64,000 bases of DNA. Source: Malacoraja senta. Lineage: Eukaryota. Shown here piece by piece: positions 10,751 through 58,309 of the stretch. The first letter of the stretch is position 1, and every line of letters begins with the position of its first letter. The notes under the pieces were generated by a model. The model was not told the DNA's origin and searched no databases. It worked only from the letters and a program-made list of their open reading frames with translations. The stretch covers positions 19,718,001 to 19,782,000 of the forward strand of contig CM075987.1 of assembly GCA_038087875.1 (NCBI GenBank). Reading direction: 5' to 3'. A program made the translations under genes and the position numbers.

Positions 10751-11445
10751 GTGTTTAGTCCCTTTTGTGCTTTGAGCATCTGTAATGACCATTCTCTGTT
10801 CCTGGAAAATAAATGGAAAAGGGGTACAGATTACTCCCCTTTACAGAGGCACTAAACTTCATCTCTGGCTGATGAGCAATAATCAGTTGCAGTTGGTAGG
10901 GATACTGAATTGGAGAAGCGCTCACTTGCTTGAGCTTCTAAGATCAACCTATCTAAATCCATTGGTTGCACATTTGCAATCTACGCACGGAAGAACCTGC
11001 AGCAGAAATTGAGAAGCAAGGAACTACAGATGCTGGAATCTTGAATAAAAAACAAAGAGTGGGGTTTCTCAGCATTTGGTGTTCTACGCAACGGCAAGCT
11101 GTGGCTTTTCTGGCAATCCAGCAACACTTAAAGGACTGCTGCTTCCATTTACAGCGGAGCAGCACTGCATGGTGCAGAGAAGGTAACGCATTTAATGTGA
11201 TGTCCCGCTGGAGGATGCTGTCTTCAAGGACTCTTTTTTTTTTGTACCAGAATTATTTCTTCTTATGTAGACCCAAATTGCCAGGAGCTGGTAGTTAAAG
11301 TGAAGCCAACTATTTGGGAAATCATTTGCAACAAACGTGAATATCATCTAGTTCATGCAGTATGCAGGGCCGGCCTTAGGAGGTGCGGGGCCCAATTGGG
11401 AACAATTTTGGTGAGCCCCAGGTTCCCAGCCAAGGTCTGTAGAAT

Positions 11446-11510
11446 CATAGAAATAGAAATAAAGTCTATTATAGACTTTATAAGTCTATTATAGACTTTA
11501 TATCTCTATG
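11446..11510. mobile_element. 65-bp palindromic mini-insertion nested in the hAT element
   Basis: CATAGA...TCTATG ends, 7-bp direct repeat GTAGAAT (11439-11445, 11511-11517), internal 20-bp tandem duplication. Confidence 0.7.
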
Positions 11511-11829
11511 GTAGAATTGAAAGTAATCAAAATGTGTGCTTAAAAAGTGCCTGCGAGTTAATGGACCAAACAGATCGAAGCTACATTGTAATATAACATT
11601 GCATACATGTAAGCCTACAAGTAACAAACAAAATGTGTAGATCACCTGTGAAAAGTACAAAGTTACAATACCACTTGTTTCAGTGACTGTGAAATGATTA
11701 AAAAAAAAGTAATTTAATTAACTAGATCCTGGAACACCAATAACCATTGGTGAAAAACCAGTCCAGGCATTAAATTTTGGGCTTCAGCCCCATCCTACCC
11801 TTTGGGCTTCTACCCCATCTAAACTTAAT

Positions 11830-12110
11830 TGTGTGTGTGTGTGCGTTAGTTGTCTGTGCGTGATGTGTGTGTGTGTGTGCGTAGAAGGGAAGGAGAGAAG
11901 GGAGGGCGGGAGAGAAGGGGGGAAGGACAGCAGGGAAGGAGGAAAGTAGAGAAAGAAGGGATGGAGGGAAGGAGAGAAGGGAAAAGAGAGAGAGGAAGGA
12001 GGGAGGGAAGGAGAGGAGGGAAGAAGGGAGGTAGGGAAGGGAAGGAGAGAAGGGAGGGAGGGAAGTAGAGAAAGAAGGGATGGAGGGAAGGAGATAAGGG
12101 AGGGAGAGGG
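11830..12110. repeat. (GT)n microsatellite followed by a GA-rich low-complexity tract
   Basis: Direct reading; accounts for the spurious Pro/Ser/Leu-rich ORFs here. Confidence 0.9.
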
Positions 12111-13234
12111 CCGGCGGCAGGAGCAGATGCCGGGGTCCGGGCGGACGGGTGTGAGCTGAGGCCGAGGTTTGTAAACGTTGCTCCAACCCGTGGCCTGGCC
12201 GTCCCTGTATTGTTCACCGCCTCTCCCCGGGGAGAGACAGGGGTGGAGCCGGGGCCGTGCGCGTGAAGCATGGCGACTGGAGGGGCGGGAGCGCTGCCCC
12301 GGGACCGTGAGGGAACGACCCACCTCCCCCCCTCCATTCCCCCTAACGCCCCCTTCACCCCTCTACTCTCTCTCTACCCCTCTCTCCCCCCTCCACCCGG
12401 GGTAGATCTACCCGAGCCGAGAGTAGATTGCTCTAGCGCGGGGCCCCCTTAGGCGCGGGGCCCAATTGGGAGCAATTGGTCCAATCGGTTTAAGGCCGGC
12501 CCTGGCAGTATGTATGTACAGTTCAGGAAGTGGATGGTTTACAGATCAAACTTTACTTTTGGCCTTTTGTGCCTGTTATGTTTTTCTATCCTGAATAAGA
12601 TTCAGAAGGGGAAATAGAGAATGGCACATGTAACATGTCTGTGAAACGCATGCTACGGGTGGCCGACAAGGCAGAGGAATCTGCAGGTTTAGGTTATCCT
12701 TTGGGCTAGTTAATGAACTTGTGCATTTGGGTTTTGTGTATCCTTTATTTTAAACAAATGTTTTGAGGAAGCTTTGAAGACCTTGTCAATTATACACAAG
12801 CCAGCATGAGTTCAATAATGGGCCACAAGCATGACAGTCCCAGCAGAGGTCTACAGGACATGCCTCCATGGCAGAGACCCTAAGAATAGTTGCTGATTTT
12901 TACACAGATGCCCTCGACATTTTTGATGTGCCCTAGATAAAAAAAGAGCTGTGTTTCCATTCGCAACAAGGTCAGAGATCAGTTTCAGCTTGAATGGATA
13001 TGGTTTCAAGTAGACCAGTGCCTGTGGAATTGCTTGAATGGATGCAAATAATGTATCTCAGTAGTGCATCAGGTCTGTGCTACCATTCCCAACTACTGCA
13101 AGCACACATAGTGGAAGATAATATGACTGTTGGCAGATTCAACAGCTGTGGGAAATTGGCCAGTTCTACCTTACAGCCAGATGATGTAGACAACTGTGTT
13201 TTTGAGAGAGTAACAGATAACGTATCTAATTCAT

Positions 13235-19410: not shown

Positions 19411-19988
19411 GTTTAATTACCTGGCTTCATCATTGCTGAAATGTTTTCAATGTCTGAATGATTTACAATTGTCTTATTATCATGATCACTTCAGCCTTGA
19501 TGTGGCGACATGTTTGCCTTTGAGCCGTTTGCTTGTTGGTTCAAATCGTTCTCTGGACCTTGATAACGAGTAATTATATAGGAGGTGTTGCCATTTGGAT
19601 GTGACTTTAATCTGTCATCCCAGACACTTAAGTGATGCATTGGCATTATTGGAAGAAGAATAGGGTTCTCTAAATGTCTGGCCAACATTTATTCATACAT
19701 GCAGACCACATTTTACTTGAAGCACATTGTCAACTATGGGAGTTGGCAGTGTACTCTTGTGTTTGCCAAGCAGAAAAGCAATATACTTAAAAAAGTGATT
19801 AACCAGCTGTGAACCACTTTAAAATGGTTTGAGATGTAAAAAGTTTTGCATAAATTATAGAACAACAAACATATTCTTCTGAATGCAAGCACGTAATGGT
19901 TACGCAAGGAATGGAATGATATGGATCACATGTAGGCAGCGGAGATTAGTTTAAGTTGGTATGTTCAGCATGGACATCATGGGCCAAA

Positions 19989-21391
19989 GACCAGTTAGTC
20001 TAACGTCGGTAGTGGGGAAACTGCTAGAGTCAGTTATTAAAGATGGGATAGCAGCACATTTGGAAAGTGGTGAAATCATTGGACAAAGTCAGCATGGATT
20101 TACGAAAGGTAAATCATGTCTGACGAATCTTATAGAATTTTTCGAGGATGTAACTAGTAGCGTGGATAGGGGAGAACCAGTGGATGTGGTGTATCTGGAC
20201 TTCCAGAAGGCTTTCGACAAGGTCCCACATAAGAGATTAGTATACAAACTTAAAGCACATGGCATTGGGGGTTCAGTATTGATGTGGATAGAGAACTGGC
20301 TGGCAAACAGGAAGCAAAGAGTAGGAGTAAACGGGTCCTTTTCACAATGGCAGGCAGTGACTAGTGGGGTACCGCAAGGCTCAGTGCTGGGACCCCAGCT
20401 ATTTACAATATATATTAATGATCTGGATGAGGGAATTGAAGGCAATATCTCCAAGTTTGTGGATGACACTAAGCTGGGGGGCAGTGTTAGCTGTGAGGAG
20501 GATGCTAGGAGACTGCAAGGTGACTTGGATAGGCTGGGTGAGTGGGCAAATGTTTGGCAGATGCAGTATAATGTGGATAAATGTGAGGTTATCCATTTTG
20601 GTGGCAAAAACAGGAAAGCAGACTATTATCTAAATGGTGGCCGACTAGGAAAAGGGGAGATGCAGCGAGACCTGGGTGTCATGGTACACCAGTCATTGAA
20701 AGTAGGCATGCAGGTGCAGCAGGCAGTGAAGAAAGCAAATGGTATGTTAGCTTTCATAGCAATAGGATTTGAGTATAGGAGCAGGGAGGTTCTACTGCAG
20801 TTGTACAGGGTCTTGGTGAGACCACACCTGGAGTATTGCGTACAGTTTTGGTCTCCAAATCTGAGGAAGGACATTATTGCCATAGAGGGAGTGCAGAGAA
20901 GGTTCACCAGACTGATTCCTGGGATGTCAGGACTGTCTTATGAAGAAAGACTGGATAGACTTGGTTTATACTCTCTAGAATTTAGGAGATTGAGAGGGGA
21001 TCTTATAGAAACTTACAAAATTCTTAAGGGGTTGGACAGGCTAGATGCAGGAAGATTGTTCCCGATGTTGGGGAAGTCCAGGACAAAGGGTCACAGCTTA
21101 AGGATAAGGGGGAAATCCTTTAAAACCGAGATGAGAAGAACTTTTTTCACACAGAGAGTGGTGAATCTCTGGAACTCTCTGCCACAGAGGGTAGTCGAGG
21201 CCAGTTCATTGGCTATATTTAAGAGGGAGTTAGATGTGGCCCTTGTGGCTAAAGGGATCAGAGGGTATGGAGAGAAGGCAGGTACGGGATACTGAGTTGG
21301 ATGATCAGCCATGATCATATTGAATGGCGGTGCAGGCTCGAAGGGCCGAATGGCCTACTCCTGGACCTAATTTCTATGTTTCTATGTTTCT
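19989..21391 (+). mobile_element. Young 5'-truncated CR1 LINE with uninterrupted RT-to-stop ORF2 and 3' UTR
   Basis: RPVSLTSVVGKLLE, QHGF, LDFQKAFDKV, SGVPQGSVLGP, SKFVDDTK; stop at 21295; 3' UTR ends in (TTTCTATG)n; inserted in an older CR1 tail (about 19905-19988 and 21392-21415). Confidence 0.97.
19991..21295 (+). pseudogene. CR1 ORF2 reverse transcriptase domain (N-terminally truncated, no endonuclease)
   Basis: ORF track 19961..21295; the first nine or so residues come from flanking older CR1 tail sequence, not from this element. Confidence 0.9.
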
Positions 21392-25214: not shown

Positions 25215-25335
25215 AGTCTGATGAAGAGTCCCCACCTGAAACGTTGCCTATTCATATCCTCCAGGGATGCTGCGTGATCTGCTGACTTATTCCAGCACTT
25301 TGTGTGATATGCAAGCCAAGGAGTTCCTTGTGTCT
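25215..25335 (+). mobile_element. PLE-derived repeat with a CTGATGA...GAAACGTT hammerhead-like core
   Basis: GTCTGATGAAGAGTCCCCACCTGAAACGTTGCC at 25216-25248; stem II is degenerate. Confidence 0.65.
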
Positions 25336-26509
25336 ACTCCTTGTGCATGCAGCTGATTGTGTCTACTCTTTATTGCAAGTGGACCAACTTGGAACACATC
25401 TATCCTTGGTCAGATGTTCTCAAATCCAAAATGACATTATTTTTGTAATATTCATTATCTACTTTCCACCTGCTATATCTACTTTCTGTCATCAGACGTC
25501 TGAAGGGTCCTTCCTAAAGTAGGGTACAGTCCCTATTTTCCAAACTACCTCATTGCGTACATTTGACTTTGTCTCTGGAACTGTTACGTTACAATGTTGA
25601 GAAACTATATTCTGCACTCTGGCATCTTTCTCTTTGCTCTACTTTTTTACTTGTGTTTGGCTTATAGTTTATTCATACATAACAAAAATCCAATTTGATT
25701 GGATAGCACATAAGCAGAAGTTTTTCACTGTACCTCAGTATACGTGCCAATAATAAACCTGAAGTTGTTTTTGCTGCCCTGTGCTCTGGAATGCCGTATG
25801 CTACATAAGCCATATGCATTCCGTTTTTATCATGAATGTACAATGATGAATTCCTGCCCTAGAATCTGTGTGTGGTTGCTATGGAGTATCCAGGGATGGG
25901 TTCACTGTTGTTCACTTTTACCTTGCTACTGTTCACTGGCCCTGTGGACAAGAACATAGATGGCAGAGACCATCTATTATCCAGTTTCAATCAATTTTCA
26001 GTGAGGTCTATTGTGCAGCCTTGAGAATCATCCCACTTTCTGCCTTATCACACTGTGTCCCTTTCCAGCTGCCGAGATCCTCATATTCCTTAAGATATGG
26101 GAGGCTCTTCAGCCCATCGGGTCTATGCCATTGTCAGGATGTTCCTATTCCTCCATTTAATTCCCTGTAAGCATTTCTTCCCCACATTCCCTTACCCTTC
26201 TCTACCCTGTCCCTCACTGGCCTTCTTGTTATCTGCTACACTATTTTACCCATTAGGATGTAGGAGGCAATTACAATATTGAGCAAAAACCCACCAGGTC
26301 ACAGAGAGAACATGTAAACACCACAAAGATAGCTTCTGAGGACAGGACTGAATCATAGATTGCATGGGAGCAGCACAAACCGCCGCATTAGAACATTACA
26401 TTTTGAGCAAATTATTTGAAATAACTATTTTTAGCAAAAATATATTTTTATATAGATGTCGTTTGAGTTGTGTCCCTTTTTCAGACTGATCATCAGTTTG
26501 AAGAAGTGT

Positions 26510-28656: not shown

Positions 28657-28874
28657 ATTGGTTTCATTATATATGTTTGGCTTAAGTAAGATTATTTTTA
28701 AACAAGTGTAATGTTAGACACTAATGTTGACTCTTGTCAAGGTGTTACCTGCATTTAGTGGAATCATATTCCTCACAGGAACACTGGATAGATGGAGATG
28801 CAATAGCAGCTTTCGGAAAGAATTCGGTATATATTTTCAAAATAAAATTGAAACAGAGTTATCAAGAGTGTTTA

Positions 28875-29103
28875 GGTAGACAAAAATGCTGGAGAAACTC
28901 AGCGGGTGAGGCAGCATCTATGGAGCGAAAGAAATAGGCAACGTTTCGGGCTGAAACCCTTCTTCAGACTGAAGACTTCTGGTTTCGGCCCGAAACGTTG
29001 CCTATTTCCTTCGCTCCATAGATGCTGCCTCACCCGCTGAGTTTCTCCAGCATTTTCGTCTACCTTCGATTTTCCAGCATCTGCAGTTCCTTCTTAAACT
29101 AAA
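28875..29103. mobile_element. Young PLE-derived fold-back insertion
   Basis: About 85-bp near-perfect inverted arms (28875-28959 and 28981-29065); 15-bp TSD TATCAAGAGTGTTTA (28860-28874, 29104-29118). Confidence 0.9.
28937..28969 (-). ncRNA. Short-stem-III type I hammerhead-ribozyme-like motif
   Basis: Minus strand GU-CUGAAGA-A-GGG-UUUCAG-CCC-GAAAC-GUU-GCC. Confidence 0.6.
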
Positions 29104-33137: not shown

Positions 33138-33311
33138 AGGTACACAAAAATGCTGGAGAAACTCAGCGGGTGCAGCAGCATCCATGGAGCGAAGGAAACA
33201 GGCAACGTCTCGGGCCGAAACCCTTCTTCAGATGCTGCTGCACCCGCTGAGTTTCTCCAGCATTTTTGTGTACCTTCGATTTTCCAGCATCTGCAGTTCC
33301 TTCTTTAACAC
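33138..33311. mobile_element. Young PLE-derived fold-back insertion
   Basis: 13-bp TSD TGCAGAGGATAGA (33125-33137, 33312-33324); inverted arms; hammerhead GAAA mutated to GAGA. Confidence 0.88.
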
Positions 33312-45610: not shown

Positions 45611-46421
45611 TACATAGATACATAGAAAATAGGTGCAGGAGTAGGCCATTCGGCCCTTCGAGCCTGCACCGCCATTCAATATGATCATGGCTGATCATCC
45701 AACTCAGTATCCCGTACCTGCCTTCTCTCCATACCCCCTGATCCCCTTAGCCACAAGGGCCACATCTAACTCCCTCTTAAATATAGCCAATGAACTGGCC
45801 TCAACTACCCTCTGTGGCAGAGAGTTCCAGAGATTCACCACTCTCTGTGTGAAAAAGTTTTTCCTCATCTCGGTCTTAAAGGATTTCCCCCTTATCCTTC
45901 AGCTGTGACCCCTTGTCCTGGACTTCCCCAACATCGGGAACAATCTTCCTGCATCTAGCCTGTCCAACCCCATAAGAATTTTGTACGTTTCTATAAGATC
46001 CCCTCTCAATCTCCTAAATTCTAGCGAGTATAAGCCAAGTCTATCCAGTCTTTCTTCATATGAAAGTCCTGACATCCCAGGAATCAGTCTGGTGAACCTT
46101 CTCTGCACTCCCTCTATGGCTATAATGTCCTTCCTCAGATTTGGACACCAAAACTGTACGCAATACTCTAGGTGTGGTCTCACCAAGACCCTGTACAACT
46201 GCAGTATAACCTCCCTGCTCCTATACTCAAATCCTCTTGCTATGAAGGCCAACATACCATTCGCTTTCTTCACTGCCTGCTGCACCTGCATGCCTACTTT
46301 CAATGACTGGTGTACCATGACACCCAGGTCTCGCTGCATCTCCCCATTTCCTAATCGGACACCATTTAGATAATAGTCTGCCTTCGCGTTTTTGCCACCA
46401 AAGTGGATAACCTCACATTTA
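45611..46421 (-). mobile_element. Young 5'-truncated CR1, same subfamily as 19989-21391
   Basis: KCEVIHFGGKN ... RPHLEYCVQFW ... GLYSLEFRRLRGDLIETYKIL; near-identical 3' UTR. Confidence 0.95.
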
Positions 46422-46424
46422 TTG

Positions 46425-47463
46425 CATAGGATCCCCAACTGGAGTACACGCAGTGAACTGCAGGTAAGCACTTACCATGGCTTCCAGTGTAACGGGCCCA
46501 TCTTCTGTCCCAGCATCTGGACTCCACGGTGACTGATTCCACACTCGCGGACCCCGGGCCGTCTATCCCCGCGGTCAGGGGTGGGGTGTGGGGGGTGGGG
46601 GGGGGAGGTCAGGGGGGTGGTGCCGATGCAGCGCGGTCAGAGACTCTGGGTGGGTGGAGGGACCAGACTGTCCCCAACTCTGCTGCAGCTGACAGGGACG
46701 TTGCTGGGTGGTCCGGGGGGGGTGTGGTTGGGGGATGGTCGGGGGGGATGGGGGTGGTCGGGGGGGTCGGGTAGGTGGGTGGTCGGGGGGGGGGGGGTGG
46801 GAGGTTTGTGGGGGGGGGAGTGGTCGGGGTGGCAGGGTGCTGATGCAACGTGGTCAGTGACTGGGTGGGCGGAGGGTCCAGACTGTTCCCAACTCTGCTG
46901 CAGCTGACGGGGATGTTGCCGGGTAGTCGGGGGTGGTCGTGGGGGGGGGGTGTGGTCAGTGGGGGGGGAGTCAGTGACTCTGGGTGGGCGGAGGGACCAA
47001 ACTGTCCCCAACTCTGCTGCAGATGACGGGGACCTTTCCGGGTTTTCGTCCCCGTGTGTTTGCTGCCAGGAGCCGTGGCCCCGCTCCACCTGGCCCCGTG
47101 TGTGGGTGCTGCCGACCCACAGCCCGTGACAGTGCGGCCACACAGGGGGAGGGTGGGCGGAGGACGGCCGTGGCCGGACAGCGCTGACCCTGGGGGGAGA
47201 GTGGGGGCTGTCCCGAGGGATGCGCTCCTTTGGCCACTTACACCTTGGTGCTCGGGTTCAGAGCAAAGATACTAGAGGATTTGGTTCAGAGTGCTCAGTC
47301 ACCCTCCACAATTATTTACAGCGCAAAATGTTACCATTTCGTCGTTTTTTATCAAGTAAAAAAGTACCCGTTTCATGTGCCATGTCCTCCAGAGGGATTG
47401 AGCTGCTCCGTGCGTCACGCCCTTTGACCCGATGACCTTATGTGCACCCACCCCCCCCTATAG
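46425..47463 (-). mobile_element. Unclassified GC-rich element, probably a non-autonomous DNA transposon, with a THAP-like remnant and internal repeats
   Basis: Sharp GC/CpG step against AT-rich flanks; three copies of a roughly 60-bp unit; minus-strand MVTFCAVNNC from 47337; left end abuts the CR1. Confidence 0.45.
47264..47283. mobile_element. 20-bp TIR remnant between 8-bp direct repeats
   Basis: GTTCAGAG-CAAAGATACTAGAGGA-TTTG-GTTCAGAG. Confidence 0.8.
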
Positions 47464-47784
47464 TCGACTGAAATCTACCTATGCTAGATTTAAAATTAAC
47501 AATTGATATGTGCCTCATCTGAAAGACTTGACTCTCATTAATCTTCAAATTGTAGACTCCTCAAACATGGGACATTGTGCCGCAGTCACCCTTATCTGTT
47601 TCTTTCAACTGGTTTCCTGATAAGAGAAATAAATTATTTCTATTTATCCCATTAGGATTTTCATCATTTTACAAACTTTGCTTAAATCTCCCCTTTGTCC
47701 ATATATTGTGACAAAAACATGCCTAGTCTAGGTCATCTCCCCAACTATAATTCCCCTGCTCTGGCAACATTCTTGTAAACCTTT

Positions 47785-51529: not shown

Positions 51530-52990
51530 ACCACAGAAACATCTTCACAGAAAAACATCCAAGAAATCTGATATAAATACCAAAGAACCGAGGATCTGGG
51601 GAAAATAAGGAAGTATAAGTTAAAAAATCACTCAGGAAGTTGGTGAGACTGAAAATCAATACATTTCAAGGACTAAAGATCTACACTCAAGAATTTTGAT
51701 TTAAGATTGAGGAAGCTCAATTTATCACCTAAAATTGCAAAGATTTTGGTTGGTTTATGTAGATGAAAGGTAGCTAACGTGACCCCACGTTAGAAGGAGT
51801 GAAAACTGTCTTGCCGTGTATCCACATTGCTTGTCAGACTGTGTCCCACTCCCACCTCTATTCTAACACTCTCTTCCCCACCCCCCCCTCCCCCCACTCA
51901 ACCAGTACAGTCTCGAAATATTTCTCATCCATGTTCTCCAAATATACTGCCTGACCTGCTGAGTTATTTGTTTAAGAAGGAACTGCAGATGCTGGAAAAT
52001 CGAAGGTAGACAAAAATGCTGGAGAAACTCAGCGGAGGAAATAGGCAACGTTTCAGGCCGAAACCCTTCTTCAGACTGATGTGTCTACCTGCTGAGTTAT
52101 TTCACCAGTTTGTTTTGTAAACCATCATCTGCAGTTCCTTGTTGTACATGGAATAGAATGATAGGAATGAACAAACTGCGTGAATTAATGAAAGGAAATT
52201 TGTATTTGATTAATTTACTAAAGTTCATTTGAGGATGCGAGGAGTTAGAATAGATAAGGGGGAAACCAATGAGTGTGGTATATCTGGATTTTGAAAAATC
52301 CCACTCAGGTCAAGGCCAATAGTATTTTTGCCTTTGAGTACAAGAGTAAAGATGTCGCAATGCAATTATTTAGGACCTTGGCTAGATCACACTTGGAGTG
52401 TTGTGTATGAATTTGGTCATCACTACAAAATATATATACTTCGAATGATGATTTATGAAACTTGTTCAAGATGTGGGTTTGCTGTATGCACTGTATACTA
52501 AAAATACAAATCAAAAAATAAAACTGCAGATGTGAGAAATCTGAAATAAAAACAAAAATGTTCAAAACCTTAGCAGACCAGGCCCCTGCTAAGTATTTCC
52601 AGCATTTTCTATTTATTTTATTGTCTAGAATGCAAAAAATGAGAAGAGATTTTGTTGGAATTTCTACCACTTTTACTGGCCATATGCAAGGGAGGATGTT
52701 TCCATAGCCTAGAACTAGTGGCACAGTTTCAGAATAATGAGGAGGCAATTTAGCATTGAGATGAGGAGAAATCCTTTCCTGCAGAGCATGATGAATCTTT
52801 GGAATTTGCTATCCTGGAGGGCTGTGGAGGTTCAGTGATTTAGTTCATTCAAAGCAGGTTGACAGATTTCTGGATATTAAGAAAATCAAGACATTTGTGA
52901 ATATTATGGGAAAAAAATATTGAGTGGAATGTCAGCCATGATCTTGAATGGAAGGCTCAAAGGACTAAATGCCCTCGTATTGTGATTTCT
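51530..52990 (+). mobile_element. Old fragmented CR1 ORF2 with nested PLE repeats (51830-52148, about 52520-52620)
   Basis: IDKGETNECG.YLDFEK-like and FEYKSKDVAMQLFRTLARSHLECCV remnants; CR1 3' UTR at about 52930-52990. Confidence 0.7.
51970..52086 (-). mobile_element. Young PLE-derived insertion nested in an older copy of the same superfamily
   Basis: 16-bp TSD ACCTGCTGAGTTATTT (51954-51969, 52087-52102); hammerhead-like core at 52044-52076. Confidence 0.85.
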
Positions 52991-53371
52991 TACAATCTTA
53001 TATGATTAGGTTATTAACCATTTAAACCAGGTTAATAAATCAAAGTATATCACAACATACAGGAGACATTATCTGTTTATTTCCTTACAGTTTGTGTACT
53101 GTGATCTGTCTGCCCAAATGCCTTAATTAATGCACCATCAGGTGCTACAGAATGGATGGTGGTGGGGTACTTTTTCAAGTGGAATAGACTGGTGATTATG
53201 AAATTGAGTGATGGATTTTGTCACCTATATCATTTCCTTAATGTTATGCTTGTTGCTTTTCCAATGTTGACGGACCAAATTGCAGTACATGGTAATATTT
53301 TCTAGCATCCTTTGTATTTAATTTCCATGACACATTCTTCTATTCCTTACTCTGTCATGTATAGTTTCCAG

Positions 53372-53404
53372 CAAAGATACTAGAGGAGCGCTCTAGTATC
53401 TTTG
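53372..53404. mobile_element. 33-bp palindromic TIR-only insertion between 8-bp direct repeats
   Basis: GTTTCCAG-CAAAGATACTAGAG-GAGCG-CTCTAGTATCTTTG-GTTTCCAG. Confidence 0.9.
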
Positions 53405-54044
53405 GTTTCCAGTTGAATGTATCTATGTTGGTTGCCTCAAATACTATTTGTAGTAGCTCGTTAACATCTTTTATGTACATTGTAGATTCTTTTGACTTCA
53501 CTGATAGATCTGTTTGTGACTTTGTTACATTTATTGTCTCTGTTTTTTCTGGTTGTATTCTAGCTCATGTGGAAACATCTTCTCCATGTCTGCTTTATTA
53601 AACAGTTCCTGAAGAATATCAAATTATAACTTCACCTATCACTCATTCTCAGTATTGTTTTTTCTAGACAAAAGAATCCCGAGTTTGTCTAATTTTTCTG
53701 AATATGTACAGCTTCTCAATTCTGCTACCATTAATATGTACAGCTTATCATTTCCTCAGCAGTTCCTCCATTTCCTTGGAGATGGAGACTGATTTAAAAT
53801 GAGTAATACCACAAGGGCATGAAAATAAGTAGAACAAGGTTCAGGAGAATGTAAATGCCGGTTAAAAATCAAAAAGATTGTGCTTTAAATGAATTTCCAT
53901 CAACATAATCTTTATCTAATAACTCCAGATGTCCATTTCACGTGGATGATTTAAAAAAAAAACATTACACTAACATGACGGAACATCACAAGAAGGAATG
54001 CAGGATGTCTCCAGTCACAAATTAAAATTCAAATGTCTATTTTA

Positions 54045-55240
54045 GATGAGGACTACCAATATAATTTTGTGTGCCATCGTAGTGGACCAAATCACAAACA
54101 GTGACGAGACAGAGTATAGGAAGGAGATAAAGAGCATAGTAACATGATATCAGGACAAAAATCTTTCCGTCAATCACCAAGAGAAAGTAGCTAGTTACTG
54201 AGATCACAAAACTAGATGGTGTACATGCCCTAGATGGTGTACAAAACTAGATGGTGTACAACCTAGTCTGCATCAATGGTGCCAAAGTGGAAATGATTGA
54301 GAGCTTCAGGTTCCTAGGTGTTAAAATTACCACCAATTTATCTTGCACCAATCACCTTGAAATTAAAAAAGATCACCAATGCCTCCACTTCCTCAGAAGA
54401 CTCAATAAGTTTGGCATATCCCCAATGGCTCTTATCAACACGGCACAGAGGCGCAGTGGTAGAGTTGATGCCTTACAGCGAATGCAGCGCCGGAGACCCG
54501 GGTTTCATCCCGACTAAGGGAGCTGTCTGAACGGAGTTTGTACATTCTCCCCGTGACCTGCGTGGGTTTTCTCCGAGATCTTTGGTTTCCTCCCACCATC
54601 CAAAGACGTACAGGTATGTAGGTAAATTGGCCTGGTAAATGTTTAAAAAAACTGTCCCAGTGTGTGTAGAATAGTGTTAATGTGCAGGGAGCGCTGGTCG
54701 GCGCGGAACTGGTGGGCTGAAGGGCCTGTTTCTGCTCTGTATCTCTAAACTAAATAACATTCTACAGATGCACCTTAGAAAGCATCCTATTGAGATGTAT
54801 CACAGCTAGGTTTTGCAACTACTCTGCCCAAGATTGCAAGGTTACAAGAAAGTAGCCCAATCCATCATGCAAATCAGCCTCCCATCTTTCTTTCCGCATC
54901 ACCTCCATATGCAATTTACACTGCCTTGGGAAAGCAGCAAATATAATCATTCTGGTAATTCCCTCTTCTATCTTTTTTCTGTCAGGCAGAAGATATAAAA
55001 CATATCACCAGATTCATGAACTTATGGGACTACTGAACGGTCTCCCATAAGTTATGGGTAAAGTCCCAATTTTCTAACCTACCTCATTGCAGCTCTTGGA
55101 AATTTTGCTTATCTGCTCTTTTTCCGTAGCTGTAACACTCTAATGCTGTGCCACTAGATTCAGCACTCTGGTATTTTCCATTTTCCACTACCTGTTGTAC
55201 TTGTGTATGGCTTGATGGTACTCATGTATGGTATGATGTT
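54045..55240 (+). mobile_element. Decayed Rex1/Babar LINE interrupted by a SINE
   Basis: INGAKVEMIESFRFLGVKIT and HQCLHFLRRLNKFG; resumes at about 54757 with TTCTACAGATGCACCTTAGAAAGCATCCT. Confidence 0.8.
54440..54753 (+). mobile_element. Well-preserved tRNA-derived SINE with CR1-like tail
   Basis: GGCGCAGTGGTAGAG (A box), CGGGTTTCATCCC (B-box-like), ends GAAGGGCCTGTTTCTGCTCTGTATCTCTAAACTAAA. Confidence 0.88.
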
Positions 55241-58031: not shown

Positions 58032-58259
58032 GTTGTTAAAGAAGGAACTGCAGATGCTGGAAAATCGAAGGTACACAAAAATGCTGGAGAAACTCAGCGG
58101 GTGCAGCAGCATCTATGGAGCGAAGGAAATAGGCAACGTTTCGGGCCGAAACCCTTCTTCAGACATATAGATGTGGGTTTCGGCCCGAAACGTTGCCTAT
58201 TTCCTTCGCTCCATAGATGCTGCTGCACCCGCTGAGTTTCTCCAGCATTTTTGTGTACC
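58032..58259. mobile_element. Young PLE-derived fold-back insertion
   Basis: About 85-bp apparently perfect inverted arms (58070-58154, 58176-58260); 15-bp TSD TGTCTCTGCAACCAT (58017-58031, 58260-58274). Confidence 0.92.
58132..58164 (-). ncRNA. Short-stem-III type I hammerhead-ribozyme-like motif
   Basis: Minus strand GU-CUGAAGA-A-GGG-UUUCGG-CCC-GAAAC-GUU-GCC; palindromic AACGUU in place of a stem III hairpin. Confidence 0.62.
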
Positions 58260-58309
58260 TGTCTCTGCAACCATTTGGGTTGCCAGTTTTTTCTTTGAGT
58301 GGGTAAGCA

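Follow-up and report, generated by a model that had tools for sequence, protein, structure and literature searches.

The window, that is the whole stretch of 64,000 nucleotides analysed here, is repeat-rich, with about 40% GC and LINE reverse-transcriptase fragments, and no host gene was recognised in it. Its short interspersed repeats suggest a cartilaginous fish. At 53372–53404 it carries a 33-bp insert whose two inverted arms, perfect over 14 bp, flank a 5-nt centre; identical 8-mers (53364–53371 and 53405–53412) enclose the insert. The insert has CA...TG termini with a short terminal inverted repeat (TIR). One further exact occurrence of the 14-nt arm is found in the window, at 47264, 6.1 kb from the focal site; there the insert measures 20 bp (16 nt and 4 nt of the same ends) and lies between its own exact 8-bp repeat. 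The features of the two sites, with the target-site duplications abbreviated TSD, are the following:

53364..53371, no strand: left 8-bp TSD, present as a single copy at the empty site in 3/3 relatives
53372..53388, + strand: putative retained left transposon end, 17 nt (a length suggested by the junction classes), of which the first 14 nt are the perfect arm
53389..53390, no strand: two junction bases, CG, unexplained by identical 17-nt tails; probable repair insertion
53391..53404, - strand: putative remnant of the right transposon end (14 nt), matching 53372–53385 perfectly in inverted orientation
53405..53412, no strand: right 8-bp TSD
47256..47263, no strand: second site, left 8-bp duplication, differing in sequence from that of the focal site
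47264..47279, + strand: second site, 16 nt identical to 53372–53387
47280..47283, - strand: second site, last 4 nt of the right end
47284..47291, no strand: second site, right 8-bp duplication, exact

Chance is an unlikely source of either site. Structures with arms of at least 10, repeats of at least 7 and a length of at most 100 were absent from 30 Markov-3 simulations of the window, and the focal DNA hairpin has a z of -7.6, none of 200 shuffles being equally stable. For the second site, exact 14-mer matches occurred in none of 300 simulated windows, and the chance that an exact 8-bp repeat closes within 25 positions is about 5 in 10,000.

The second copy sits inside a GC-rich block (46423–47485) which has three imperfect internal repeats and adjoins a 5′-truncated LINE. 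We considered this block as a P-like host element and rejected it: its ends are inverted over six bases, but a TSD is lacking and the block occurs just once in the window. Elsewhere, positions 11357–12512 hold a non-coding element of 1,140 bp. Its terminal inverted repeats are perfect over 14 bp, its 8-bp TSD is exact, and we take its ends to resemble those of hAT-type MITEs. A 27-bp CA...TG segment at 25310–25350, with 8-bp inverted arms and 7-bp repeats with one mismatch, is possibly an old footprint of another family with a 7-bp TSD, a weak case given 3 such loose matches in 40 simulations. Head-to-head pairs of an abundant short repeat, with inverted arms of 85–86 bp around about 20 nt, lie at 28874–29065, 58069–58260 and 33138–33310. 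Two LINE reverse-transcriptase fragments (20577–21387 and 45612–46422) are 96% identical in opposite orientation; together with a 446-aa open frame (RVT_1) at 19955–21295, they suggest young LINE activity.

The parent element was looked for in several ways. Among the 450 of the 582 stop-free open reading frames of the window (at least 45 aa) that were scanned with Pfam, no transposase was found, and so no THAP + P-type RNase H (DDE) enzyme with a GTP-binding insertion, the matches being to RVT_1 and ALKBH8_N only. In JGI metagenomes the two-arm pattern gave 0 matches and the 17-nt end gave 40, none with the partner end; three of the 40 had a loose nearby repeat 31–43 nt on, which we read as chance. 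The 16-nt end gave 30 matches in IMG/VR, one of them with a loose partner, also read as chance since two mismatches were allowed in both the arm and a low-complexity repeat. Rfam gave no match over 44–58 kb of the window, and among the matches listed for the end sequence in the literature only unrelated topics appeared.

Empty sites in relatives and copies at other loci

Four of 24 runs were compared with the window over 52700–54100: a second sample of the same species (X20) and three other organisms, whose flanks differ from the window by substitutions at 3.2% (X1), 4.0% (X23) and 6.8% (X9). In 3/3 of these relatives position 53363 is joined to 53405, so that 41 bases (33+8) are skipped and eight letters fit on either side. 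The short side of the joint measures 255 letters in X23 and X9 and just 29 in X1; in X23 and X9 one contig spans the empty site straight. Because the relatives show a joint skipping these 41 bases, the focal structure is an insertion and not decayed old sequence. Ancestrally the locus held the 8-mer once; the duplication and the 33 bp were gained in the lineage of the window's species. X20 carries the insert in one piece, with two other letters and no gaps; no empty-site joint was listed for this run, and no polymorphism of the insert was seen in the two samples of the species.

The structure is therefore a true insertion and exactly what the earlier note had described, namely 8-bp repeats around a 33-bp palindrome with inverted arms. 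Its proposal of recent activity is borne out in a weak sense: the insert is younger than the split from the closest relative compared (3.2% local divergence), and nothing tighter bounds its age. We discarded the perfection of the arms as proof of very young age, because 44 positions would stay unmutated with a probability of 0.49 at 1.6% divergence.

The palindrome also occurs on dozens of contigs from other loci in three of the four runs (X20, X1 and X23). The summed contig depth at its centre is about 1,200x, 250x and 210x the flank depth, respectively, values which are not copy numbers. Unrelated flanks begin exactly at the left boundary in 24, 23 and 12 contigs of the same three runs. In each of them a GT-N4-AC octamer closes the consensus of the loose ends that precede 53372 (agreement 0.43–0.47, from contigs selected by mismatch at 53371). 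This motif is common to P, Hermes and hobo, and we dropped it as a test between P and hAT. Likewise, a 7–8-bp TSD made on insertion, here represented by exact 8-bp repeats at two sites, is a feature of both the P superfamily and hAT. CA...TG ends, which had been taken as a P-superfamily sign, are found in diverse transposon families (PMC2577343) and are non-diagnostic. In X9, the most distant organism compared, depth over the palindrome is about 4x that of the flanks and no centre variants were listed; either the family expanded mainly after the X9 split or it has diverged ends in X9.

Two outcomes named beforehand as fatal to a footprint reading did not occur: the copies are not all one identical 33-bp sequence, and another TSD-flanked copy does exist (47256–47291), one that the earlier note had missed. 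High copy number, as expected of a MITE, is seen in the dozens of contigs and the high summed depth of three of the four runs; the homogeneous length and sequence of a MITE are not, the classes being of 20, 31, 32, 33 and 34 bp, though a few master subfamilies may lie behind them.

Central junctions and their likely counterparts in Drosophila

Junction classes were deduced from the gap positions of 12 listed gap rows, 51 further rows existing besides. Six of the 12 fall in the element, five of them at 53388–53390 (nt 17–19 of the insert), and these central five hold 100 of 101 contig-row counts, in which one contig can count twice. We modelled joins of 14–17 nt from each end, aligned to the focal copy. 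With identical 17-nt tails, the model predicts five of the six listed element rows, as forms of 31–34 bp whose largest is 17+17. In this model a T gained after 53389 or a C gained after 53390 would be two equal alignments of the 34-bp 17+17 form, the loss of 53390 would be 17+15 or 16+16, the loss of two bases at 53388 would be 17+14 and the loss of 53388 would be 16+15. Among the listed rows, those of the 34-bp form carry most depth in X20, and the classes appear to reach a ceiling at 34 = 17+17.

The alternative model, using the focal copy's own right end, fits two of the observed listed rows as well, but its diagnostic rows (a G gained at 53387/53388, and the separate losses of 53387 and of 53389) do not appear among those listed. 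Asymmetric ends, read as 17+16 or as 17+17 with a 1-nt overlap, are disfavoured by this absence. The focal copy is probably better read as 17 nt, 2 extra bases and 14 nt than as 17+16; the decomposition of 33 into 17+16 put forward earlier is probably wrong, since under identical tails 17+16 would give another centre. As judged from the gap rows, the pattern of a P footprint, at most 17 nt per end with a variable central junction, is found in five of the six listed element rows and in the 16+4 copy. Mutation at the tip, which can affect perfect palindromes, would look much like such junction variety.

Drosophila P transposase makes a 17-nt staggered cut and 8-bp TSDs (PMC7776569), and donor sites after end joining retain the two TSD copies together with at most 17 nt of either end (PMC2895639). 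The fly junctions, tabulated from Rad51-deficient male germ lines, comprise 30- and 32-nt microhomology joins, blunt 17+17 and 16+17 joins, 17 + 2 inserted + 16, and a lopsided 16+4 class (PMC2895639, Tables 1–3), the last recovered in three isolates (Table 1). The sites described here resemble them in the intact 8-bp TSD on both sides and in the terminal sequence of at most 17 nt per side. The blunt 17+17 and 16+17, 30–32-nt, small-insertion and lopsided 16+4 classes also have likely counterparts, the two window copies and the five classes fitting. They differ from the fly junctions in terminal sequence, in their vertebrate host and in being natural, apparently fixed and numerous, whereas the latter come from laboratory crosses; the transposase here is putative.

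In vertebrates the closest comparison is zebrafish Pdre, which has a 13-bp perfect TIR and an 8-bp TSD, and whose zfTHAP9 excises in cells but did not integrate in cell assays (PMC10983969). Vertebrate host, 8-bp TSD and short perfect TIR are shared. The Pdre TIR differs after the first two bases, and the Pdre copies described in the available part of that report are long or internally deleted rather than scars of about 34 bp. Moreover, zfTHAP9 left larger flanking deletions, with no integration reported there (PMC10983969), whereas here the TSDs are exact and the empty site demonstrates insertion. P MITEs of Anopheles (PMC1562414) and Drosophila BuT5 (PMC3698922) are likewise non-coding, with P-like ends, an 8-bp TSD and many copies. 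As described in those sources, they keep longer 5′ and 3′ P sequence and an internal part (about 1 kb in BuT5, PMC3698922), unlike the 20–34 bp with a variable centre seen here. In listings of the open-licence literature we found no account of natural P-type footprints from a vertebrate and none of P elements from sharks or rays, and the term ‘P element’ is absent from the available main text of two elasmobranch genome papers. The family may already have a Repbase or Dfam consensus.

Origin and meaning of the probable scars

What lies at the focal site is a real lineage-specific insertion belonging to a multi-copy family of 20–34-bp end-only remnants, and most likely working like a P-element excision footprint. 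We put the probability that the 41-bp insert is a germ-line excision footprint of a P-superfamily cut-and-paste element at about 0.68. Insertion, 8-bp duplication, multiplicity, the variable centre and one lopsided copy are observed; a parent of greater length, a staggered cut, repair by end joining and an enzyme of P type would complete the scheme as follows. A longer element with these ends would first have integrated, with duplication of 8 bp at the target. Its later excision, if it resembled that of Drosophila P, would have involved a staggered cut some 17 nt inward from either terminus, so that 3′ tails of transposon sequence stayed on the host flanks. End joining would then have united the tails after variable trimming or with small insertions, which would account for 17+17, 17+15, 16+16, 17+14, the focal 17+2+14 and, at the second site, 16+4. 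Such germ-line excisions would have recurred many times in the lineage of organisms G, A and I; the one at the focal locus would postdate the split of G from the others. The resulting scars are probably inert, being too short for internal transposase-binding sites: because such sites lie internal to the 31-bp TIR of Drosophila P (PMC7776569), scars holding at most 34 bp of ends would be without them.

The earlier preference for a P-type excision footprint over a uniform micro-MITE thus gained support from the non-identical copies, from the other TSD-flanked copy and from the listed variants, which top out at 34 = 17+17. Its P/THAP9-related part is another matter, in that solely the geometry of the footprint would point to that label.

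A mobile micro-MITE would explain several of these observations. On this view a P or hAT transposase would act in trans on a 34-bp perfect palindrome, and the variety at the centre would stem from a small number of master copies or from mutation at the hairpin tip. The many loci, with centre depths of about 1,200x, 250x and 210x the flanks in X20, X1 and X23 (no copy number), the few dominant classes common to three species and the lack of any parent element seen would all suit it. We nevertheless consider it unlikely: nothing in a MITE gives a reason for the largest listed class to equal 2 x 17 nt precisely, the 16+4 copy lacks the right arm although its TSD is perfect, P elements require internal binding sites beyond the TIR, and the P MITEs described retain subterminal sequence.

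An 8-bp TSD, a GT-N4-AC target preference and a short TIR are equally features of hAT elements (Hermes, hobo, Tol2), and the first and last are found here. The copies might then derive from a hAT or other 8-bp-TSD element by extreme internal deletion, through abortive gap repair in which a few bases are re-synthesised per end and then joined. In Ac, P, Tc1 and Mutator, such repair yields deletion derivatives (PMC3814204). The ends and the target consensus suit hAT just as well, and a hAT-like 1,140-bp element with an 8-bp TSD is present in the same window. Gap repair, however, should give a broad length range and not classes packed at 31–34 bp. hAT excision usually alters the TSD through hairpin opening, whereas both window copies keep exact TSDs. 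Because the hairpins of hAT excision form on flanking DNA (PMC3878927), TIR tails are not expected from it, and the available text of that source does not describe about 17 nt of each TIR being left. If the copies are footprints, their retention of up to 17 nt per end with exact TSDs departs from flank-hairpin excision without long TIR remnants, an argument that is silent on a hAT micro-MITE. Taken together, we regard the gap-repair origin as improbable. For chance or a local duplication or inversion unrelated to transposons, only the absence of a visible parent element could be invoked. This is refuted by the 0 in 30 simulations, by the same ends at a second TSD-flanked site and at many loci in three species, and by the clean empty site in relatives, which leave it practically no probability.

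A far-reaching form of the P-type footprint reading would be that a vertebrate lineage, probably of cartilaginous fish, hosted a fully transposition-competent P-superfamily element with a Drosophila-like 17-nt stagger, which left hundreds to thousands of heritable scars; an intact integration-competent transposase may then be recoverable, and the 34-bp scars may themselves be mobile. We consider this doubtful, although worth stating.

The presence of similar scars at other spots suggests that the unusual cutting pattern of the fly also operated in the germ line of a vertebrate. Biochemical work established the 17-nt staggered cut for Drosophila P, and natural scars could tell whether vertebrate P-like transposases share it. 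With them the question could be answered in vivo without any need to clone the enzyme, past activity could be dated, and the outcomes of germ-line end joining could be sampled across many loci. Scars of 40 bp are easily overlooked by repeat annotation, and their empty and filled states are clean phylogenetic markers. Should the 34-bp unit turn out to be mobile instead, its size would be unusually small for a transposon; if the novel P reading is true, the scars would read out both cleavage geometry and germ-line end joining in a vertebrate.
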